Of a DNA stretch of 33,072 bases, positions 7,722 through 33,072 are shown piece by piece; within the stretch, counting starts at the first letter, position 1, and each line of letters starts with the position of its first letter. Source of the DNA: Moorena bouillonii PNG (GTDB taxonomy: Bacteria > Cyanobacteriota > Cyanobacteriia > Cyanobacteriales > Coleofasciculaceae); contig NZ_MKZS01000001.1 of the NCBI RefSeq assembly GCF_001942495.1, positions 186,503 to 219,574 of the forward strand, read 5' to 3'. The translations under genes were made by a program, and so were the position numbers. The notes beneath the pieces are model-generated. The model was not told the origin of the DNA and made no database searches. It saw nothing but the letters and a program-made list of their open reading frames with translations.

Positions 7722-10628
7722 TCAATTGCGCAGAATCAACCGTTGCCGATGAACATGCAACAAACGAAACTCCTGCTGCGCCACCTGGTCCAACATATAA
7801 ATAATATGCTCTGGTCGCAACATGGTGCCATCATTCAAACAACTCCCGACATACCGCAAAACCACCCCAGACTCCGCAACCTCCTCTTCACCATCTTTGG
7901 GTTTTTGGGGTTCCATCACCTCGAACTCAAATAAGCGATCGCATAAATTCACCCACTGCTTCTTACCCGACTTCGTAAACCGCTCCCACCAAATTTCCTT
8001 ACTACCCTTAATTGCTTCAATCCAACCCTGCCAGTCTTCCCAAGACACCGATGACATTACCTCAACTTGAATCAAATACTCAGCCTTTTCCAACAGCTGA
8101 GTTCCAGCAGGTTCCTTCAAATCCACTGCTTCAACCCCATACACCGGAATCTCTTCAGGCAACTCAGACACCAGCCTTTCCCTAAACTCTTCAACTGGCA
8201 TTTTCTGAGTTAACTCAAACTCCACAATCTCCCCACTACTAGACGCTCCCAAGGGCAATGCATTAGCAATCATAATCCGAGCATTAGCCCGAAACCCCCC
8301 ACTATAGCGAATTGGTAGTGACGCCCGTCTTACTGCTCTCTCAAACAGACTTGCCAAATCCAGATGACCCAACAAGGTCATATCCCCCAACTTTCCAAAC
8401 CAAACCCGCAGCCGCTGATCCTTATTAGTATTGGGTTTAAAGTGACCAGCAAATTGGGGAATCTGCGGCGGGTCAATCACCACATTATGACCAAAATCAA
8501 TCCCACACACACCACAGTGAGAACACCCATCAAAGGAACAATCCGGTACTGTTGCTGCATCTAACGCCCGTTGTAAATCTTCCTTGAGCCAATTCTTATC
8601 AATTCCCGTATCAATATGATCCCAAGGCAAGGGAGCATCAAGGGCATCAAGGGTTGAAGGTTGTTCGCGTAGCGTGGCCGAAAGGCCAAGGTTAGTTGGT
8701 TGTTCGCGTAGCGTGGCCGAAAGGCCAAGGTTAGACCGTTGAAGGTTAGACCGTTGAAGGTTAGACCGTTGAAGGTTAGACCGTTGTTCGCCTTTGGCGT
8801 TCCCGTAGGGTAGGTTATTTGGTTGTTCGCGTAGCGTGGCCGAAAGGCCAAGGTTATTTGGTTGTTCGCGTAGCGTGGCCGAAAGGCCAAGGTTAGCTGG
8901 TTGCTCTGAACTTTCAACCTTCAACCTTCCAACTTGCAACTCTTCTAGACCAGCCATCACGTTCCATTCGCCATTTTCTACTTGGCGATATTTCCAGGTC
9001 AGACCTGATGAAGCGATCGCATTTTCCCAAGCAGCAAATGCCCGATCCAAGCTTTCCATCCAGGAGTCCATCCCTGCCCCCAATTCCCAAGCACGGCGCA
9101 CCACCGCACTTAAGCGTCTGTCACCCCGTCCCACGAAATCTTCCATGGCCGAAATCCGAACATCGGTGTAATTAACCTTCACCCCCCTGATCTGAGCAAA
9201 TACTTGTTTGAGCAATTCCTGCTTGCGTTTAAACTCCGAAGTCGATACGGAATGCCACTGGAATGGGGTGTGAGGTTTTGGGGTAAAATTAGAAACAGTT
9301 ATGTTAAACTTAAGGGTTTTTCTGCCTTTGGCACGGCACTCCTGCTGCAACCAACGCACCGTTTCTGCGATCCCCAACACATCCACATCCGTTTCACCGG
9401 GCAAACCAATCATAAAATAGAGCTTGACTTTCTCCCAGCCTTGGTCAAATGCCGTCTTTACTCCCCTGAGCAGTTCTTCGTTAGTCAGTCCCTTATTAAT
9501 AATATCCCGCATCCGCTGAGTTCCTGCTTCTGGGGCAAAGGTCAAGCCACTCTGCCGATTTCCCCCTAGGATATTGGCAATATTTTCATCAAAGCGGTCT
9601 ACCCGCTGACTAGGTAGAGACAGGGAAATATTCTGATCCTTAAGACGATTTTTGATTTCCATCCCCACCGCTGGTAGAGCCAGATAATCCGAACAACTCA
9701 GGGATAAAAGGGAAAACTCGTTATACCCTGTAGCACGCATGCCTTGTTCAATAGCTTCCACCACTTTTTCCGGTTCCACATCCCGCGCTGGTCGAGTCAG
9801 CATCCCAGGTTGGCAGAAGCGACAACCCCGAGTACAGCCCCGTCGCACTTCGATCTTGAGTCGGTCATGAACCGTTTGGATATAGGGTACTAGTCCAATA
9901 GCATAGGCAGGCATCGGTGTAGCCACACGCCGCAAAATCCGCTTCGGCACATCAGGGCGGTTGGGTTTAACTGAGCCATCCTCAGTCATATCATAGAATT
10001 GGGGGACATACACCCCTGGTATCTGAGCCAAATCCAGGAGTAATGCTTCTCGACTTAAGCCAGCTGCTTTGCCTTCTTCGATTACTAAGCCAATCTCTGG
10101 CAACAATTCTTCCCCATCGCCAAGATCAACAAAATCTAAGAAATCTGCATAGGGTTCAGGATTCGATGTCGCCGTTTGTCCACCTGCAAAAATTAGGGGG
10201 ATTTCCGATATATCAAACTCAGCACGGTCTTTCCAGGTCAGGGGAATTTCTGCCAAATCCAACATTTCCAAGATGTTGGTTGCCCCTAATTCATAGCTAA
10301 GGCTAAAGCCAATAATATCAAAATCTTTCAGAGGTCGCCGATTCTCGACAGCAAACAGAGGGGTTTGAGTGGAACGCAATTTAGCTGCCAAGTCTGGGGC
10401 GGGTAGATAGGCGCGATCGCATAATTGCCTAGGTTGAGAATTCAATATATTGTAGAGGATGATATGGCCTAAGTTAGAAGCGCCCACTTCATAGACTTCT
10501 GGATAAGTCAATACCCAGCGTACCTCAGCTTTTTCCCAAGGTTTATGGACTGCTCCCAACTCGTTACCTAAGTAACGGGCAGGTCTGTTGATGTCTGGTG
10601 TTAATATTTCCTCTACAGTGATTGCCAT
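7722..10628 (-). CDS. Radical SAM protein fused to a DUF2344-like C-terminal domain (TIGR03960/TIGR03936-type fusion). It carries an in-frame insertion of about 95 aa derived from repetitive elements.
   Basis: N-terminus 'MAITVEEILTPDINRPARYLGNELGAVHK' and the CxxxCxxC cluster 'CTRGCRFCQPG' identify the family. The ORF is long and conserved-looking. The internal low-complexity segment 'NLGLSATLREQPN' x4 plus 'SNLQR' x4 is encoded by DNA repeats at 8640-8930. Confidence 0.85.
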   Translation of the reverse strand: MAITVEEILTPDINRPARYLGNELGAVHKPWEKAEVRWVLTYPEVYEVGASNLGHIILYNILNSQPRQLCDRAYLPAPDLAAKLRSTQTPLFAVENRRPLKDFDIIGFSLSYELGATNILEMLDLAEIPLTWKDRAEFDISEIPLIFAGGQTATSNPEPYADFLDFVDLGDGEELLPEIGLVIEEGKAAGLSREALLLDLAQIPGVYVPQFYDMTEDGSVKPNRPDVPKRILRRVATPMPAYAIGLVPYIQTVHDRLKIEVRRGCTRGCRFCQPGMLTRPARDVEPEKVVEAIEQGMRATGYNEFSLLSLSCSDYLALPAVGMEIKNRLKDQNISLSLPSQRVDRFDENIANILGGNRQSGLTFAPEAGTQRMRDIINKGLTNEELLRGVKTAFDQGWEKVKLYFMIGLPGETDVDVLGIAETVRWLQQECRAKGRKTLKFNITVSNFTPKPHTPFQWHSVSTSEFKRKQELLKQVFAQIRGVKVNYTDVRISAMEDFVGRGDRRLSAVVRRAWELGAGMDSWMESLDRAFAAWENAIASSGLTWKYRQVENGEWNVMAGLEELQVGRLKVESSEQPANLGLSATLREQPNNLGLSATLREQPNNLPYGNAKGEQRSNLQRSNLQRSNLQRSNLGLSATLREQPTNLGLSATLREQPSTLDALDAPLPWDHIDTGIDKNWLKEDLQRALDAATVPDCSFDGCSHCGVCGIDFGHNVVIDPPQIPQFAGHFKPNTNKDQRLRVWFGKLGDMTLLGHLDLASLFERAVRRASLPIRYSGGFRANARIMIANALPLGASSSGEIVEFELTQKMPVEEFRERLVSELPEEIPVYGVEAVDLKEPAGTQLLEKAEYLIQVEVMSSVSWEDWQGWIEAIKGSKEIWWERFTKSGKKQWVNLCDRLFEFEVMEPQKPKDGEEEVAESGVVLRYVGSCLNDGTMLRPEHIIYMLDQVAQQEFRLLHVHRQRLILRN
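8640..8930. repeat. Composite tandem-repeat element inside the rSAM CDS. It has 39-nt units (ttggttgttcgcgtagcgtggccgaaaggccaaggttag) x4 and 15-nt units (accgttgaaggttag) x4. All units are multiples of 3 nt.
   Basis: Direct reading of the sequence. The same unit families recur at 24085-24385 (intergenic), 18683-18712, 27897-27975 and 29583-29603. Confidence 0.85.
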
Positions 10629-11211: not shown

Positions 11212-11853
11212 GAGTAGACTCCTCACTGGGTCAAATCCAATAAAATTTTTTAGAGAATATATAGAAGATAGTATGGAATTTTGCTAATTCCATACCACTT
11301 CTGAGATACTTTGCCGAATCTTTACAGATGGCTAATGGTTTTTAAAATCTTCATAAAACTTACCATCACAATGTATCATATATTACTTTCTTTAAAGTTA
11401 AGTAATTTATTTTTCATTTCCGATGGTCTAAGTTGCTATGAGCATGGCTCAGTTCATACCTATAAGTAGGGATTAAATTTTAATAATTTTTGTTACGTTA
11501 AATCAATAGAGCTGCCCTGACCTAAAAATATAATACTTTTTTTTATAGGCTTGAGCCAAATGTTTAGCTTTAGGTAAGTATAACGTTAACTAGGGTGTAG
11601 AGGCAAGTAGTACTAAGCAGTATTTGCTTATAACTGCCTAAACTTTAATACCTCTAAGCCTTGAAACGGCATAGCTTCTTAGGTTCAGGTTAAGCTTTCT
11701 GAGTTAAGTCAAAAAGGCTTATAATATGTATGTCAGAGAGGACAAATCCACCTCATCAGTGATTTAGATCACATACCAATAAGATAAAAATCACTAGAGT
11801 GGTTAGTAGTTTCAGAAGACAATAAATTTATATGGAATTGTGGGTAAGTCATA

Positions 11854-13337: not shown

Positions 13338-14531
13338 ATGACGTCTGAGCAGGATAAACCTGAGGTGGCTAAAATCCTCGAACCATTTAAACCCGCATTG
13401 GCTGAGCATCTGAGCAACCCTGATGTTGTGTTAGACGAGGTACTGGCATGGACTGGCTCTCAGCCTTTTTTGACCCAGAAGCTTTGTCAAGTTATCCTTG
13501 ACTCTAAATCTCCCATCCCTGTTGGTGAGGAAGCTCTCAAAGTCGAAGAACTCGTCAAAACTCACTTCGTTGAAAATTGGGAAACTCAGGAAGCCGCTGA
13601 ACTTCTGCAAGATATTCGTAGTTTCTTGCTCGAAGAACAATTCCTGCGCCTGTATCAGAAAATTTTGCAGGGAGTCATGATGGCAAATGACAGTTGGGAA
13701 CAAAAAGTGTTGCTCAACTCCGGTGTGGTGATTAACCAGGGGGGAAATCTCAAAGTTTCTAACCGTATTTATGAGGCTGTTTTTAATCACAGCTGGGTAG
13801 CTCAAGAGTTAGCACAGTTGACCAGTACAGACTTTTGGCTGGCATCTGAGCTGACCACAGACGCTACTGATGAAGCCATCGCTATCGCTTTTCCTAACCT
13901 ACCAATCACCCCAGTTACTCAAGACCAAGATCTAACAACTGACGAGCCCAAACACCGAGCTCCAACAACTGACGATTCCAAACACCGAGATCTAACAACT
14001 GACAATCCCAACCGATTAACTGTAGTACCTTTAGAGCCAGACCAAGCCACAACCTTGTCTACCCCATCAGCTAGCAGAATCCCATCACCCATTAGTTTTT
14101 GGGGTGGCTTGATCGCCTTGTTTCTAGTCATTACCTTTGGTGTATTTCAGTGTACTAGTTCTAGAAGAGCAGACGATCAACTAAAAAACCTTGCTTCTGA
14201 GGACATATGCAGACGTCAATTTACTAACAGAAAAGAACAAATAGAGCAACTTAGAAAGATAAAGAGTCAAAATAGTGCTTTTCCTAAGCTATGTCAGTCA
14301 ATGTTAGATCAATTGCAGTTTTCCTATGCTATAGAAGAGCTCGCTAGTCAAGGTGAATTCAAGCAAGCTACTATAAATCTTTGTCAAGTATCACAGCGTT
14401 ACTACCAGTTTAGACAAAAATCTCTTCCACGTTTTTTCCGTCGATGGGGTCGGAATAATGAGAATTATGCTAATTGGTTGAAAAACTATCTAATAAAATA
14501 TGATTGTCCCGCTTCTAAATATTTGGGCTAA
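13338..14531 (+). CDS. Hypothetical single-pass membrane protein with 11-aa tandem repeats
   Basis: A 397-aa ORF. The repeats 'DLTTDEPKHRAPTTDDSKHRDLTTDNPNR' come from 33-nt DNA repeats at about 13915-14010. There is a hydrophobic segment 'ISFWGGLIALFLVITFGVF' and a Cys-containing C-terminal domain. Confidence 0.55.
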   Translation: MTSEQDKPEVAKILEPFKPALAEHLSNPDVVLDEVLAWTGSQPFLTQKLCQVILDSKSPIPVGEEALKVEELVKTHFVENWETQEAAELLQDIRSFLLEEQFLRLYQKILQGVMMANDSWEQKVLLNSGVVINQGGNLKVSNRIYEAVFNHSWVAQELAQLTSTDFWLASELTTDATDEAIAIAFPNLPITPVTQDQDLTTDEPKHRAPTTDDSKHRDLTTDNPNRLTVVPLEPDQATTLSTPSASRIPSPISFWGGLIALFLVITFGVFQCTSSRRADDQLKNLASEDICRRQFTNRKEQIEQLRKIKSQNSAFPKLCQSMLDQLQFSYAIEELASQGEFKQATINLCQVSQRYYQFRQKSLPRFFRRWGRNNENYANWLKNYLIKYDCPASKYLG

Positions 14532-14550
14532 TCAATTGTTAAATTGAAAA

Positions 14551-14640
14551 CAGGGAACAGGGAACAGGGAACAGGGAACAGGGAACAGGGAACAGGGAAC
14601 AGGGAATAGGGAACAGGGAACAGGGAACAGGGAATAGGAA
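14551..14640. repeat. Heptamer tandem array (CAGGGAA/GGGAACA) of about 13 copies, STRR-like
   Basis: Direct reading. It lies between convergent genes (the 13338..14531 CDS and amt). Confidence 0.9.
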
Positions 14641-14759
14641 ATGTATGGATTTTTAGCAAGCATTTAACTAACTAATTAATAGAAGTTAAGATTATAGATT
14701 TTTTTATTTCCTACTTTTTAAGACTTAGCTATTTACTTACTGAACTGATAATCCAGATT

Positions 14760-27736: not shown

Positions 27737-27772
27737 GATTTTTCATACTCCATAAAACTTAAATAACAGTAT

Positions 27773-27847
<75 letters not shown>

Positions 27848-27894
27848 TGATTTTATTCAAAAACAGTAGTGTGGCACACCTCAAGTAGTGTGGC

Positions 27895-27975
27895 ACAGGC
27901 TTTGGCCTTTGGCCACGCTGTGCGAACGACGCTGGGACCTAACCCATAAGCTGTTCGCGTAGCGTGTGCGTAGCA
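27895..27975. repeat. Hairpin copy of the GGCCACGCT(A/G)(C/T)GCGAAC dispersed element. An inverted pair ggccacgctgtgcgaac ... gttcgcgtagcgtgtgcg is present.
   Basis: Direct reading. It is related to the units at 8660-8890, 18683-18712 and 29583-29603. Confidence 0.7.
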
Positions 27976-27989
27976 CATTCGCTGATACC

Positions 27990-28117
27990 TGATTGCTGAT
28001 TGCTGATTGCTGATTGCTGATTGCTGATTGCTGATGGCTGATTGCTGATTGCTGATTGCTGATTGCTGGTTGCTGATTGCTGATTGCTGATTGCTGATTG
28101 CTGATTGCTGATTGCTT
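27990..28117. repeat. Heptamer array TGATTGC of about 18 copies
   Basis: Direct reading. It abuts the stop codon of the spike gene. Confidence 0.9.
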
Positions 28118-28955
28118 AATTAATTGATACCGTCTTACCGGTAATTTTAACGTTTTTACTAGCTTTAAAGTGCATCCCCTGCTTAGTTTCAATTTTGCTA
28201 CCATTAGCATTAACTTTCAATGACTTATCTGTCTTCATATCCAGGTTATTCTTGGCAGTAATTTTGATATCTTCCTCGGAAATAATTTCGATACCCTTAC
28301 CACCAAGCTTTAGCTTACCTTCCTTAGACTCAATGGTAATCGAATTATCCTTAGTATTAATAATAATGCTGTTTTTGCCAGTTTTATCAATTACTTCAAT
28401 TTTTTCCTTATCCTTAGTATCATCTAAGCAAATAGTGTGACCACTTTGGGCAATTACTTCAATTTTGCCTTTGTCCTTAGTATCATCTAAACGGATAGTA
28501 TGTTTCTTATGGGAAATGACTTCAACTTTTTCTTCATCCTTAGTATCATCTAAGCGAATAATATGACCACTACGGGACTTAATTGTACGCTTATTAATAG
28601 TCTTTTTTTTACTATCTTCCTTGTCTTTTTCAGGAGACTCAGGTGGTTTATCTTTGCCATTCCATAACCCTCCTAGGATATAGGGAAAATTAATATCACC
28701 TTGTTCAAAAGCTACCAGCACCTCATCATTCACCTCCGGCAAAAAATAAATACCACGGTCATTACCAGCCATGGGAGTTAACACCCTAGCCCAATAACTT
28801 TCATCATTATCTGAGAGCCAAGGAAACTTGACCTTGACTCGCCCTAAGTTTTCCTCATCGCCATTGTTAGTCACTATTCCCATAGTCACCCCATAGAAAC
28901 GACCTCGTATTTCAGGGGGACCTAGCAAATTACTTAGTAAATCGATGCTTGTCAT
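28116..28955 (-). CDS. Spike protein of the gpV/gp5 family (Phage_base_V OB-fold N-domain plus beta-helix repeats)
   Basis: 'YGVTMGIVTNNGDEENLGRVKVKFPWLSDNDESYWARVLTPMAGNDRGIYFLPEVNDEVLVAFEQGDINFPYILGGLWN' is the canonical gpV/VgrG-gp5 N-domain. The C-terminal repeats 'HTIRLDDTKDKGKIEVI' occur three times. Confidence 0.85.
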   Translation of the reverse strand: MTSIDLLSNLLGPPEIRGRFYGVTMGIVTNNGDEENLGRVKVKFPWLSDNDESYWARVLTPMAGNDRGIYFLPEVNDEVLVAFEQGDINFPYILGGLWNGKDKPPESPEKDKEDSKKKTINKRTIKSRSGHIIRLDDTKDEEKVEVISHKKHTIRLDDTKDKGKIEVIAQSGHTICLDDTKDKEKIEVIDKTGKNSIIINTKDNSITIESKEGKLKLGGKGIEIISEEDIKITAKNNLDMKTDKSLKVNANGSKIETKQGMHFKASKNVKITGKTVSIN

Positions 28956-28963
28956 GATGTCCC

Positions 28964-30020
28964 GGTGGTGATAAACATGTAGTGATACAACATTTACTTT
29001 AGCCTAAATAAGACATTTGTTAATCAAAAATATAGTCACTAATATAGTCACTTGACTATCATATTATTAGCAATACTTATATAATTTATTAAAAAATTTG
29101 ATTAAAAAACTCTTATGAAACTGCTATATTTTTATTAGTAAAAAATGCTTTTTCGATAAACAAGCCCTGGTAAACAATGAATGCAAAACCTGATTTAATA
29201 ACCCGACCTAATTGCCCTTACTGCAATTGTGAGCGAACAGTTAAAAATGGCAGCACTCATAATAAAAAGCAAAAATACCTCTGTAAAAACTGTAAGAAGC
29301 AGTTTCTAAAAAATCCGACAAAAAAGCCGATACCATTGTCGAAAAAAAAGATAATAGATGACCTCTTGCTTGAAAAACTATCTTTAGCTGGCATTGCACG
29401 AGTAGTTGGAGTTTCAAAAACATGGCTCCAAAATTATGTTAATAAAAAGTATGCCGAAACTCCCCGAAAAATCAAGGTTTCCGAAAAACCAAAAGGGAAA
29501 ATTACCATAGAATGTGATGAAATGTGGTCTTTTGTTAACCAGAAAGATAATCAGCAATGGATTTGGTTGGCAATTGATGGCCGTTGGCCACGCTACGCGA
29601 ACAAAAAACTAGAGAAATAATTGGAGTTTATATTGGTGATCGTACTCGATACTCGGCCAAAAAATTATGGCAGTCTTTCCCTCCAGTAGTTCGACAATGT
29701 GCTGTGTGTTATACAGATTTTTGGGAAGCTTATAAAACAGTAATACCTAAAAAGCGATGCAGCGCGGTCTTGGGGGTTTCCCCCATGAGCGACTGCATCA
29801 AGACAACGTCACAAGCCAGTAGCAAAAAAAACTGGTAAAACTAATCATATTGAAAGATTAAATAATACCTTAAGACAAAGGATTAGTCGTCTGGTAAGAA
29901 AAACTTTGTCATTTTCCAAAAAAGAACGAAAATCACTTAGGAGCTATTTGGAATTTTATTCATCACTATAATAAGTGTTTGTCAGGTTGATTAGGCCATC
30001 ACTACATGTTTATCACCACC
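28964..30020 (+). mobile_element. IS1-family insertion sequence (1057 bp). It has 23-bp perfect terminal IRs (GGTGGTGATAAACATGTAGTGAT) and an 8-bp target duplication GATGTCCC.
   Basis: IRL 28964-28986 and IRR 29998-30020 are exact reverse complements. Direct repeats GATGTCCC lie at 28956-28963 and 30021-30028. The internal ORFs read 'NCPYCNCERTVKNG...CKNCKKQF' (zinc finger), 'IECDEMWSFVNQKDNQQWIWLAIDG', 'REIIGVYIGDR...YTDFWEAYKTVIP' and '[30 protein letters not shown]', all IS1 InsA/InsB hallmarks. Confidence 0.9.
29177..29985 (+). pseudogene. IS1-family transposase (InsAB-like), broken into three frames by inserted small elements and a poly-A tract
   Basis: Frame changes occur at about 29600, where the element GGCCGTTGGCCACGCTACGCGAAC sits. 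They also occur at about 29760-29800, where the hairpin gatgcag...TTGGGGGTTTCCCCCATGAgcgactgcatc sits, and at the A8 run at about 29822. Confidence 0.75.
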
Positions 30021-31090
30021 GATGTCCCATTTCTCCTAACCTTGAATGCTGTGCGATACCCTCGTTTATGAGAATAACTATGGGTGCTGGAGGTGACATA
30101 GTAGTCACCACTAAACTGTTTGCCCACCCCTTGGATAGTAATAACAGTAGCTGCTCGCAAGTCAGGGCGTCCGACACACAAGCCCTCCCCACTGATGTAT
30201 TCTAGGGCCATGTTATTAAATCCTCCCTGAGCGATTTGCTCAGCTTCCTCTCTACTGAACACAGGGCGATACAAACGTTCGCTGGTTTTTTTTCCACTAC
30301 CCAAAGCCGGATCTACAGCCTTAGCACCGCTCTTGTTAGTACTAAAACCAGGACTGGCTCGCCCAATGAAGGCTTTCTTGTCCTTCGGGTTCCAACCGCG
30401 CACCTCCACCTGTCCCACCTGGGTCAAGCTGGTCAGTCGGGAAGAAAAACTGAGCAAATCCTTTCGTTGAACTAGGGTCAACACTGACTTGGATTTATCC
30501 TGATGGGGCCGGAAATATAGTGTTTTATCTTGAACCACTACCTCATAACCGAGTCGTTGAGCACGGGTCTGAAGAAATTCCATGTCTGTTTGGTTATGCT
30601 GTAGTACATAGTCCAAAACCAGCTTTGTCGTTACTCCCCCATACTTTAGACCGGCTTTTTTGGCAATATCTCTAGCAATATCGCTGTCTTTCTTTTTAGT
30701 AAACGAGCGAGTGTTGTAACCCCGAAGCAATCGATGACTGTAGTCGTAGCCGCGCACTGTCAACAGAGGTATTTCCCCATGGGCAAATTCTGGTTCCAGA
30801 CCGGTAATCTGACCCATCATCAGTTTTTGCAGTTTCCCTCCACTACCCCCGTAGCCCATAAAAATCGTTACCTCATTGCCTAGCTTAAACAGTTGCGGAT
30901 CAATCCACTCCTGCTTTTCTTGGTCCCAGTTGGCAAGCTTGATGGTAAACATAGTGGGAGTACTAACGTTTTCATCCACAATTACTGCCATCACATCAGA
31001 CCGCAACTGTTGTCCCCTGATCAGAATTCTGAAGCCAGGGACTGAGGTAGCGATGCTATTGGTACTAGTTTGAGGAGGTGTCGAGAGCAT
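30002..31090 (-). CDS. Baseplate hub protein of the phage late control gene D (gpD/gp27-like) family. The stop codon is now supplied by the IS1 inverted repeat.
   Basis: 'QHNQTDMEFLQTRAQRLGYEVVVQDKTLYF' and the C-terminus 'GDYYVTSSTHSYSHKRGYRTAFKV' match the Phage_GPD pattern. The last 5 codons, 'VVINM*', are encoded by IRR of the IS1 element. Confidence 0.8.
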   Translation of the reverse strand: MLSTPPQTSTNSIATSVPGFRILIRGQQLRSDVMAVIVDENVSTPTMFTIKLANWDQEKQEWIDPQLFKLGNEVTIFMGYGGSGGKLQKLMMGQITGLEPEFAHGEIPLLTVRGYDYSHRLLRGYNTRSFTKKKDSDIARDIAKKAGLKYGGVTTKLVLDYVLQHNQTDMEFLQTRAQRLGYEVVVQDKTLYFRPHQDKSKSVLTLVQRKDLLSFSSRLTSLTQVGQVEVRGWNPKDKKAFIGRASPGFSTNKSGAKAVDPALGSGKKTSERLYRPVFSREEAEQIAQGGFNNMALEYISGEGLCVGRPDLRAATVITIQGVGKQFSGDYYVTSSTHSYSHKRGYRTAFKVRRNGTSVVINM

Positions 31091-31098
31091 GGTTAATT

Positions 31099-31950
31099 TT
31101 AGGTTAGATTAAGTACCGGGATGGTCAGAACTTGACCTGGTGTAAGGTTACGGGGATTATTAATCCCATTAGCCTTGGCAATCTCTCGCCAGAAGCTGGG
31201 GTCATTATATTCTTGACCAGCGATGCTGCTCAGGGTTTCTCCACGTCGCACAACGTGAATTGGGTCGTCATCCCGTGCCAGAGAACTGGGCTTTTCCCGC
31301 TCCTCATCTTCTTCAGGGATGAACTGGTGGAAAGTACAGTTGAGAGCGGCCCTGACTGGCATCCCATTAGGGGTAAACATAGTAAAGCGCTGGGTTAGTT
31401 GTCCAAGATACCCCTTAAAAATCAGGTTAAATGCCCCCCACCAGAGTTCACATACAGGGGGACGTTTTAAATCAGAGTCAATCAGAGTCAACTCAAAAAT
31501 CTTATTCGTATACTCTCGAACATCTACAGCATTGGGTGCTGATAATCCATACACACCAGTTAACGATGACGCCGCTGTTGCCGCTCCCGATGCAACTCGT
31601 TTGAGGGGAGAACTGCCGCCCCCGGATATACTTTCAGGTAGTCCCTCGTAGGTGTCAAAAAACAGGTCGAGAGTCAGGGTTGCTGGATCCCCACCAATAA
31701 ATTTAGTATCACCGCGATCGCGGTTTTTGAGAGTTTCATGACGCCATTGGGTTGTCTTGGTAATTTGAATTTCATTAGGATTGAATAGAGGCATTGGTTT
31801 GTTTTCTGGAAAAACCATCTGCCATCTTTTTCCTGGCTGCTCCTTGAGGATGGTTAATTTATCTAACTCTGCCCCAAAGAGGCTACTTGTTAATCCTTTG
31901 GTTTGGTTTAGTGTTTTTTGGGCTAGATTCTTAAACCCTGTTAATGCCAT
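31099..31950 (-). CDS. LysM-domain protein (Cis7/Afp7-like, or a gpU-gpX-like fusion) of contractile injection systems
   Basis: C-terminus 'GETLSSIAGQEYNDPSFWREIAKANGINNPRNLTPGQVLTIPVL' is a LysM domain. The gene sits immediately upstream of gpD-like, 8 nt from it. Its ATG overlaps the stop of the upstream gene in an ATGGCATTAA arrangement. Confidence 0.65.
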   Translation of the reverse strand: MALTGFKNLAQKTLNQTKGLTSSLFGAELDKLTILKEQPGKRWQMVFPENKPMPLFNPNEIQITKTTQWRHETLKNRDRGDTKFIGGDPATLTLDLFFDTYEGLPESISGGGSSPLKRVASGAATAASSLTGVYGLSAPNAVDVREYTNKIFELTLIDSDLKRPPVCELWWGAFNLIFKGYLGQLTQRFTMFTPNGMPVRAALNCTFHQFIPEEDEEREKPSSLARDDDPIHVVRRGETLSSIAGQEYNDPSFWREIAKANGINNPRNLTPGQVLTIPVLNLT

Positions 31951-33072
31951 TGGCTTAATCCCCTCCGCTCACTTTCTATGGTCAGATGCTGCATCAGTTT
32001 ATGGTGTACTTTCTCTACTAGTTCATCCACATCAATGTCCTCCACAGACTGATTAGTTGTAGTAGCGCCTGTTGTATTTTCTGATGCTTTCTGAATCACG
32101 GTATTTGCCTGTAAGCTAGTAGTTGATACAGTTGATATACTAGTTGATACTGATGCACCGTTGACAGATGGCATTCTTTGGATAACTCCAGAGCCATGAT
32201 CACCAATAGATGGCGAACTACTAACTCCTAGTCCGTTGCCAGAAAATGACGTTCTATTGACCCCAGAGGCGGAAAAAATCAGGGGAGCAGATAATTGATA
32301 ACCATCTTTTCCGGAAATTTCTCTAACCACTGGTCGCTCCGGGGTGGGTTGAATCAATGGCTGCTTTCCTTCGGATGGGCTGTTGACTATCTCCTTGACC
32401 ACTGGTCGCTCCGGGGTGCGTTGAATCAGTGGCTGATTTCCCTGGGATGGGCTGTTGACAATCTCTTTGATCACCGGTCGCTCCGGGGTGGGTTGAATCA
32501 GTGGCTGATTTCCCTGGGATGGGCTCTTGACTATCTCCTTGTGAAGCGATCGCTTTGGGGAGCGTTGAATCACTGGCGACTGGGTCAGGTTTCCGGAACT
32601 GCCTAGCGATCGCTTAGACTCTGTTGGCAAAGTGGTATTGGTGTTTTTTAAATTGTTTTTTAAATTGTTTTTTAAATTGTCTGAACTGACCTCTCCCCCA
32701 ACTCCTGCTCTAGTAGGAAAGGAATGTTGAGTACCACCCGTTCCTTCAGGATTAGGAGGGTTAGGCAACTTTACCAACATCTTCTCAGAACTACTTCCAG
32801 AACTACTTGATGACTGGGAGTTAATTGCTTTGGCTTGGACAACTGGCCAGGATAAGTCAGAAGATAGTCTAGTTTTCCTAGAAGGTTCAAGACCAGAAAC
32901 TAGGGGTTTGCTCTCAGAATCTGCTCTGGGGGAAGTCCTCTTAGTGGAGTTTACAAATTTTGCCTGGACAATCAATGGTTTTGTCCCAGATTTGCCCCTT
33001 TCAGAGGGTATTGAATTTGGTAACTGCTCAGTGCAATAAAGATGCTCTATTGACAAGCTGAGAGGGAAAATT
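31941..33072 (-). CDS. Repeat-containing Ser/Pro-rich protein, 5'-partial, possibly a tape-measure-like length determinant of the CIS
   Basis: The ORF is open to the window edge. It has three 20-aa repeats 'KEIVNSPSQGNQPLIQPTPERPVI' and 'NLKNNLKNNLKN', the latter from 15-nt DNA repeats. The conserved-looking C-terminus 'DIDVDELVEKVHHKLMQHLTIESERRGL' is translationally coupled to the LysM gene. The functional call rests on position only. Confidence 0.35.
   Translation of the reverse strand, partial: IFPLSLSIEHLYCTEQLPNSIPSERGKSGTKPLIVQAKFVNSTKRTSPRADSESKPLVSGLEPSRKTRLSSDLSWPVVQAKAINSQSSSSSGSSSEKMLVKLPNPPNPEGTGGTQHSFPTRAGVGGEVSSDNLKNNLKNNLKNTNTTLPTESKRSLGSSGNLTQSPVIQRSPKRSLHKEIVKSPSQGNQPLIQPTPERPVIKEIVNSPSQGNQPLIQRTPERPVVKEIVNSPSEGKQPLIQPTPERPVVREISGKDGYQLSAPLIFSASGVNRTSFSGNGLGVSSSPSIGDHGSGVIQRMPSVNGASVSTSISTVSTTSLQANTVIQKASENTTGATTTNQSVEDIDVDELVEKVHHKLMQHLTIESERRGLSQWH

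Follow-up and report, generated by a model that had tools for sequence, protein, structure and literature searches.

Two families of hairpin-forming mini-elements, probably akin to small dispersed repeats, within an IS1 transposase gene of Moorena bouillonii PNG

In the 33,072-nt stretch of Moorena bouillonii PNG DNA analysed here (contig NZ_MKZS01000001.1; the whole stretch is called the window), a defective element of the insertion sequence (IS) family IS1 carries two short sequences, E1 and E2, inside its transposase gene. E1 and E2 represent two unrelated hairpin families, they were inserted independently, and they helped to inactivate the gene. Both are very likely mobile mini-elements that resemble the small dispersed repeats (SDRs) of cyanobacteria. 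The features of the element are listed below by window position; labels of the form L### and P#### denote comparison loci and proteins, respectively.

28964–30020 (1057 bp), plus strand: defective IS1-family element, host of E1 and E2
29177–29620, plus strand: N-terminal fragment of the transposase open reading frame (ORF), 147 aa, whose last 14 codons consist of E1 and out-of-frame IS sequence
29579–29601 (23 nt): E1, GGCCGTTGGCCACGCTACGCGAA, reading TTCGCGTAGCGT-GGCC-AAC-GGCC on the minus strand; shifts the frame by +2
29603–29608, plus strand: A6 run directly 3′ of E1, native to the IS and also found in the intact copy L163
29754–29804 (51 nt), plus strand: E2, hairpin GCGATGCAGCGCGGTCTTGGGGGTTTCCCCCATGAGCGACTGCATCAAGAC, located in an A-run; shifts the frame by +1
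29924–29929, plus strand: third lesion in the gene, one inserted nucleotide (+1 frameshift), GAACGA versus TTA-GA in relatives

E1 and E2 as insertions in the transposase gene

An initial annotation, made from the letters of the window, had proposed that the transposase ORF is broken where two short elements sit. This was borne out by the ORF listing, in which frame 0 stops at 29620, 19 nt past E1, and the continuing frame stops at 29838, 34 nt past E2. The two sequences had been recognised correctly, while their positions needed revision, from about 29583–29603 to 29579–29601 for E1 and from about 29762–29806 to 29754–29804 for E2.

The relatives of the host element are annotated as IS1 family transposases, with a single ORF of about 240 aa and the domains PF03400 and PF03811. 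Its terminal inverted repeats (28964–28986 and 29998–30020) measure 23–24 nt and are 100% complementary, and comparison of the flanks identified GATGTCCC as an 8-bp target-site duplication (left copy 28956–28963, right copy 30021–30028). The PF03400/PF03811 homologues, the inverted repeats and a duplication length within the 8–9-bp range place the element in the IS1 family. The two domains correspond to a DDE transposase that has the IS1 catalytic domain together with a zinc-finger/HTH region at the N-terminus. Furthermore, Moorena and Hormoscilla copies align with the element over its whole length.

The closest intact transposase is P0001, encoded on L163 (245 aa, 87% identical), which reads ...WLAID-QKTREI... 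and ...VIPKKRHKPV... without interruption at the E1 and E2 sites. The corresponding empty sites in L163 are GAC^CAAAAAACT for E1 and CCTAAAA^AACGTCAC for E2, and equivalent sites occur in the Hormoscilla copies L001, L005 and L007. Intact IS1 copies thus lack both sequences, as had been anticipated. The empty sites further indicate that E1 is exactly 23 nt long and entered without target duplication, and that E2 comprises 51 nt plus one ambiguous A (29753 or 29805), which can be assigned to neither side and gives a length of 51–52 nt. The short flanking duplications considered in the initial annotation were therefore not found at E1, and at E2 they amount to this single A at most. A 3-nt target duplication (CGA) for E2, sought in the comparison of L011 with L012, was also considered and rejected, the other sites being unsupportive. 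In-silico removal of 23 nt and 52 nt yielded an open frame of 221 codons that is collinear with P0001 and is then broken by the +1-nt lesion near 29924–29929.

The two insertions differ in age. E1 is absent from L163 and the Hormoscilla copies, while it is present in identical form and at the same IS site in L010 and L012 (both M. producens 3L) and in L011 (Moorena sp. SIO3I8). These three IS copies have different flanks and are 80–91% identical to the window copy. The sharing of E1 between IS copies at different loci indicates that it entered an ancestor of this IS subfamily, which kept transposing. The view of E1 as a recent local event was accordingly abandoned. In contrast, E2 is absent at the IS site in L163, L010, L011 and L001 and is private to the window copy among the IS copies. 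As, moreover, an identical 51-nt copy is found at a different locus in M. producens 3L (L171), E2 is recent. The target duplication of the window copy is still intact. One IS copy thus carries one old and one recent insertion. The elements had also been described as nested; this does not apply to E1 and E2, which are neighbours separated by about 150 nt, neither inside the other, but it does apply to a hairpin within a hairpin at 18810–18852, described below.

The E1 and E2 families and their mobility

Both families have further members in the window, which are listed here.

8664–8687, 8703–8726, 8826–8849 and 8865–8888: four E1 units, in frame in the ORF 7722–10628 (minus strand)
18686–18709, plus strand: E1 unit of 24 nt with stem CGGC/GCCG, exactly between two AAGTCTG heptamers in the rpsR–RNase II spacer
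18810–18852, plus strand: hairpin of 43 nt whose core, TTGGGGTTTCCCCCATGA, is of the E2 type; it is inserted in the apical loop of an E2-type element that is older (about 18780–18877)
27903–27926 (minus strand) and 27954–27977 (plus strand): two inverted E1 units with 27 nt between the modules

The E1 module comprises 24 nt (23–25 nt across copies), namely the fixed 12-mer TTCGCGTAGCGT and, directly after it, a variable stem of 4 bp that closes a loop of 3–4 nt; the 12-mer itself folds into a CGC-GTA-GCG mini-hairpin. The 17-mer GGCCACGCTACGCGAAC with at most 3 mismatches was found eight times in the window (8663, 8702, 8825, 8864, 18685, 27911, 27953 and 29586), compared to 0.04 matches expected, and the hairpin-constrained motif likewise occurred eight times, compared to 0.09 in shuffled sequences. 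These matches include the relatives of E1 noted beforehand in the radical SAM (rSAM) gene, near 18683–18712 and in the hairpin at 27897–27975. In 239 kb of Moorena DNA, comprising the window and 22 loci, GTTCGCGTAGCGT with at most one mismatch gave 26 distinct 13-mer matches. A perfect 4-bp stem follows directly 3′ in 21 of these 26, while chance would provide one at about 0.8% per site. The stems fall into 11 stem/loop variants (GGCC, CGGC, GTGC, TGGC, GCGC and others), which indicates covariation in the stem next to an unvarying 12-mer. The base 3′ of the hairpin is A in 20 of the 21 cases, and the base 5′ of the G is a pyrimidine in all 26.

E1 is pasted precisely after a G, without target duplication. 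When the 24-nt unit starting at TTCGCG is excised, the phase of the AAGTCTG heptamers is restored at 18686, as is that of a 15-mer repeat at 8664 and at the sister copies of that unit. Excision likewise restores an exact highly iterated palindrome 1 (HIP1), GCG^ATCGC, within a TnpB-like ORF (L172 6107), and near-HIP1 sites are recovered at L012 1809 (TCG^ATCGC) and in a M. producens PAL plasmid (GCA^ATCGC). The IS copy of E1 sits at G^ATC when filled copies are read from the minus strand. Overall, 5 of about 27 E1 sites are of the G^ATC type, one of them an exact HIP1, and most of the others are YG^A.

The initial annotation had further held that such hairpins colonise IS elements, coding sequences and intergenic regions alike, and E1 copies were indeed found in all three contexts, with the intergenic copies in repeat arrays and copies in frame in a coding sequence. 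Each of the four units in the ORF 7722–10628 encodes GLSATLRE, at a site corresponding to the stretch that links the radical-SAM domain to DUF2344; E1 can survive in frame inside genes because its length is 24 nt. The inverted pair at 27903–27977, which resembles a doublet of repetitive extragenic palindromes (REPs), a so-called REPIN, folds as DNA with −20.4 kcal/mol (z −3.0). M. producens 3L has, in one of its IS1 copies (L012 3348–3398), two E1 units in tandem with a 27-nt period (E1 plus GAT), the result either of a second insertion 3 nt away or of a slippage duplication.

E1-like units were also observed in loci of Hormoscilla and on a plasmid of Nostoc flagelliforme, in the latter as GTTCGCGCAGTGT-CTC-GTA-GAG. 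Among the other searches, a 14-mer E1 scan of viral contigs returned isolated chance matches only, the structured 21-base pattern had no match in viral contigs, and a BLAST search of plasmids with a 37-nt E1 query gave mostly noise. The structured pattern had four matches in one metagenome scan, all in contigs of 66–68% GC, and these were judged to be chance. No Rfam family matched E1, E2 or any other part of the window.

E2 is a 51-nt imperfect hairpin with a G5/C5 core, and its ends GCGATGCAG...CTGCATCAAGAC are fixed in the Moorena copies. The secondary structure expected for it was confirmed by folding (−17.6 kcal/mol as DNA, z −5.5). Compensatory changes at five stem pairs were counted across 12 copies, giving 18 double-change cells compared to 7.0 ± 2.1 in shuffles; none of 500 shuffles reached this number, and slid controls were much lower. 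In Moorena, E2 inserts after A-runs, including those in other IS copies, and also into the loops of similar hairpins. The core TTGGGGGTTTCCCCCATGA occurs twice in the window (29770 and 18825), compared to 0.02 expected, and the second match corresponds to the recurrence noted earlier upstream of rpsR (18824–18848). Two further E2 copies are found in the IS copy L012, at positions other than that of the window E2, and one of them holds a nested second E2-type hairpin. In three E2 copies (L011, L012 and L027), the loop holds a MITE (miniature transposable element with inverted repeats) of about 100–150 nt.

A MITE with the ends GGAGACGAAACC...GGTAACTTCAAA and a length of about 100–200 nt was seen alone in one IS1 copy, in three E2 loops and in a TnpB element (L010 2886–3092; L011 3378–3532; L012 3110–3311; L027 2572–2728; L171 about 13360–13470). 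This MITE may target the E2 loop.

Beyond Moorena, the E2 core with different outer stems matched 25 plasmid records, mostly of Nostocales. The hosts are Nostoc, Fischerella, Trichormus, Halotia, Brasilonema, Tolypothrix and Stanieria (Nostocales and Pleurocapsales). The motifs of both families thus recur elsewhere, not only in the window but also in further Moorena strains and other cyanobacteria. An E2-type hairpin lies inside the 3′ end of tnpB on a Stanieria plasmid (L028 2495–2540), and another between the divergent tnpB and tnpA genes of an IS on pCC7120alpha of PCC 7120 (L155 20001–20041). Together with the window copy, these indicate that three different IS families carry the hairpin. 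The possibility that E2 represents the 3′ end of tnpB (the omega-RNA region) was examined and rejected, as the copy in the Stanieria tnpB is also insertion-like and codes for the same 10-residue peptide.

The E1 and E2 families are very probably mobile, as copies of both are present in some Moorena strains and absent from others. The rpsR–RNase II spacer of the window was aligned with that of six other Moorena strains (alignment A2), and a wider set of 16 orthologous Moorena loci was also compared. The window shares identical S18 and L33 proteins and the order rpmG–rpsR–RNase II–amt with M. producens 3L (GL890973) and CP017708, and its DNA identity with other Moorena assemblies is 91–97.5% over 5–10 kb. 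An assignment to Nostocales, first prompted by the heptamer arrays and the Nostoc plasmid matches of E2, was rejected on these grounds. In alignment A2, the E1 unit at 18686–18709 is absent from the other six strains. In the wider set, its site shows a clean 51-nt gap in 9 of 16 loci, and the unit is present in L175 (97.5% identical). The 43-nt hairpin at 18810–18852 (−12.7 kcal/mol, z −5.7) was found in the window, L160 and L161 and is missing from L157, L158, L159, L162 and seven more loci. It lies within an older hairpin, GCGATGCAG..GGGGAATTCCCCC..CTGCATCAAGAC, and is the true nested insertion of the window. Across roughly 15 kb of orthologous DNA, the E1 unit at 18686, the hairpin at 18810–18852 and changes in the copy number of tandem repeats make up almost every window-specific indel of at least 12 nt.

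Two other inserts were noticed in these comparisons. A MITE with the ends TAGGTGCGC...GGGTCGCACCT, 114–123 nt long with a nested E1, fills its site in seven Moorena loci (L171, L173, L174, L176–L178 and L172), and the window has an empty site at 11636–11639. A 37-nt hairpin, TCCAATGGGCAGGTAAACTGCCCTTGGGTCGCGCCTG, occurs in CP017708 (L172) only, with an empty site at 22242 of the window, and appears to represent a further family of small elements.

Relation to known repeat classes and possible modes of movement

The closest known class is that of the SDRs of Nostoc punctiforme and its relatives, especially SDR5. SDRs reportedly measure 21–27 nt and are said to have been found inside IS copies. 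Published descriptions present them as very small mobile repeats (PMC3116915) of "some 20 bp" (PMC2884548), and SDR5 inserts precisely between the third and fourth nucleotide of HIP1 (PMC4390886). E1 is similar in size class, in its dispersed, multi-copy occurrence, in the combination of a fixed sequence with a variable hairpin, and in having copies within other repeats. Its mobility is likewise evident from filled and empty orthologous sites. Like SDR5, it inserts precisely and without target duplication, at L172 6107 between bases 3 and 4 of HIP1. E1 differs from SDRs in its hosts, Moorena (Oscillatoriales) and Hormoscilla, whereas SDRs were, at the time of that report, known from Nostocaceae only (PMC5861425). 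E2, with 51 nt, exceeds the SDR size range. The interpretation of E1 and E2 as an instance of a known, poorly understood repeat class in a new host genus is well supported.

The initial annotation had described the elements as MITE-like or REP-like. The comparison with REPs is apt, although SDR-like is the better term. REPs are palindromes of 20–40 bp whose stems measure 6–13 bp and which bear a tag, GTAG or CGTC, at one end (PMC3733652), and REPINs are REP doublets (PMC3116915). E1 resembles them as a short, GC-rich hairpin with a covarying stem, a GTAG near the stem, no target duplication and some inverted doublets. However, its stem comprises only 4–5 bp, and an extra TTCGC is conserved 5′ of GTAG. 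REPs are also mainly extragenic, while E1 occupies the rSAM-DUF2344 ORF (four copies), the TnpB-like ORF and the transposase gene of the IS1 element.

The comparison with MITEs, of which Nezha and MaeMITE are cyanobacterial examples (PMC3184786), was not upheld. E1 and E2 share with MITEs that they are non-autonomous, multi-copy, hairpin-forming and filled or empty between strains. In contrast, MITEs are 100–400 bp long, a size that neither element reaches, and possess the terminal inverted repeats of a parent IS and a target duplication, none of which is found in E1. E2 possesses hairpin arms and a duplication of at most 1 nt, and no parent IS was found for it. Palindrome-associated transposable elements (PATEs), which derive from IS200/IS605, are similar to E1 and E2 in lacking a target duplication, in their single orientation relative to a short fixed sequence and in their dependence on a hairpin. 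However, PATEs carry two different subterminal hairpins matching a resident IS200/IS605 element, and the one Moorena TnpB element examined has unrelated ends.

As E1 and E2 have no coding capacity, the reading we favour is that they are copied by a factor supplied in trans. Such a factor would recognise the folded DNA hairpin together with the fixed 12-mer and paste a copy. The insertions are further marked by exact boundaries, the YG^A target including G^ATC and HIP1, and the entry into hairpin loops. Enzymes of the HUH/Y1 type, such as RAYT and the TnpA of IS200/IS605, act on single-stranded DNA, recognise hairpins and generate no target duplication. By analogy, the mover of E1 and E2 could be such an enzyme acting on single-stranded DNA, a tentative proposal that we regard as possible rather than probable.

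Several observations weigh against the favoured interpretation. The E1 copy in the IS has 23 nt instead of the canonical 24, which points to imprecise insertion or to the later loss of one base, and single E1 hairpins are only weakly stable (fold z −1.3 to −2.8). The likeness to SDRs is one of size, structure and insertion behaviour, with E1 a putative member of a named SDR family. No mobilising enzyme was identified for E1 or E2: no gene with a Y1 transposase domain is present in about 240 kb of Moorena loci, and none of the best 120 relatives of a cyanobacterial IS200/IS605 TnpA (PCC 7120 query) is named Moorena. In addition, the TnpB element in L171, the one element examined, has CCCCGTGTCTAATGACCGGGG and CCCCGCGTATGCGCGACCGGGG as its ends, and these are unlike E1 and E2.

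A hairpin copy-and-paste system could be common to filamentous cyanobacteria beyond Nostocaceae, including Moorena, Hormoscilla, Nostoc, Fischerella and Stanieria, but we consider this doubtful. If it exists, one shared system would insert modules of 24 nt and about 45–50 nt exactly, without target duplication, after G (often at G^ATC, HIP1 among these sites) or in hairpin loops. It would be distinct from classical transposition and would connect nicking at HIP1/GATC with the spread of repeats.

The modules might also move without a dedicated transposase, being copied at nicks or extruded hairpins by repair or replication, whether through gene conversion of short patches or through template switching, with G^ATC, HIP1 and the loops of existing hairpins as preferred entry points. 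The G^ATC-type sites and the exact HIP1 among them fit this scheme, directed cutting at HIP1 has been suggested for SDR5 (PMC4390886), and the tandem E1 of L012 and the tandem arrays in the rSAM gene, as well as the entry of E2-type hairpins into the loops of like hairpins, are in line with it. However, most E1 sites share only the G with the element, the boundaries are base-exact at unrelated sites, and a hairpin that covaries next to a fixed 12-mer suggests a specific recognition factor. We regard repair copying as doubtful, though conceivable.

It is rather unlikely that E1 and E2 are strict REPs, moved mostly as REPINs by a RAYT, a domesticated Y1 transposase, encoded elsewhere in Moorena. 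This idea draws on the GTAG tetranucleotide located 2 nt 5′ of the E1 stem, the layout of GTAG-1 and GTAG-2 REPs (PMC3733652), on the report of GTAG REP families from filamentous cyanobacteria, on the inverted doublet at 27903–27977 and palindromic E1 fusions in L172, and on the absence of a target duplication. On the other hand, the short stems mentioned above depart from the 6–13 bp of GTAG REPs, most E1 copies are single or in tandem, many lie within coding sequences or IS genes instead of intergenic regions, and neither a RAYT nor another Y1 gene was seen in the Moorena loci searched.

A route through RNA, in which a transcribed hairpin is reverse-transcribed and integrated by one of the reverse transcriptases that filamentous cyanobacteria commonly have, is very improbable. 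Covariation of the stem would fit RNA as well as DNA, and the orientation of E1 relative to the coding strand is the same in both coding contexts seen. Against this, no poly-A or priming signatures and no association with a reverse transcriptase were seen, stem pairs of the G-U type are rare (few GU cells), and Rfam gave no match.

A different role for E1 was also considered, in which E1 and the A6 run form a functional −1 frameshift signal that has made a single-ORF IS1 dependent on frameshifting, as in the InsA/InsAB′ arrangement of classical IS1. The candidate slip stretch in the E1-bearing IS1 reads ...GCGAACAAAAAACTAGAG..., and after the +2 shift by E1, a −1 slip on AAC AAA AAA C would be predicted to yield ...NKKTREI... 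in the normal downstream frame. In its favour, four IS copies, from different loci and at least three genomes, carry identical E1 sequences at one position, implying that the IS moved after it had gained E1, and the window copy retains its intact 8-bp target duplication. However, all four E1-bearing copies contain further stops, indels or insertions, AAGAAA replaces A6 in two of the four, C AAA AAA is not the canonical X XXY YYZ heptamer in the zero frame, and the protein database contained no product ending in the E1-coded tail. As the spread is explained equally well by intact copies acting in trans, we consider a functional signal highly unlikely. That E1 and E2 are native to IS1 and resemble sequences elsewhere by chance is practically negligible, since nothing but the sharing of E1 among Moorena IS copies speaks for it, while intact homologues lack both and the motifs recur far above chance in unrelated contexts.

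For E1 and E2 as SDR-like mobile elements, Moorena offers a favourable setting, because many sequenced strains are 91–97% identical and recent gains can be read base by base. The movement of 24-nt repeats has been an open question since such repeats were reported from Nostoc in 2008 (Elhai et al., Genome Res 18:1484), and the Moorena copies provide data with which the mobilising factor could be sought. Inserts of the E1 and E2 type also break or lengthen genes, produce strain-specific indels and confuse the annotation of IS elements and repeat-rich linkers.

The IS1 insertion site and other repeats in the window

The IS1 element lies at the ATGA stop/start overlap of a gpD-like gene (30002–31090) and a gpV-like gene (28116–28955) in a phage-tail-like cluster. 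The last gpD codon has been replaced by the IS, and the two genes are now apart. They were probably translationally coupled before the IS1 arrived. The gpV-like gene contains in-frame repeats of 63 nt at 28389–28576, and the ORF 31941–33056 near the window end contains three 72-nt repeats (32316–32577).

Tandem arrays of 7 nt (AACAGGG, AAGTCTR, CAGYGGT and GCTGATT) are located at 14549–14646, 18650–18720, 27767–27853 and 27981–28123. They resemble the short tandemly repeated repetitive (STRR) sequences of heterocystous cyanobacteria, and their copy number varies by strain. A 15-nt tandem repeat, AACCAGCTAACCTTC, is present in 13 copies at 24197–24391, upstream of the ORF 24404–25405, and this array is 105 nt shorter in CP017708. 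A related 15-nt repeat, AAGGTTAGACCGTTG, occurs four times in frame in the rSAM linker (8727–8786).

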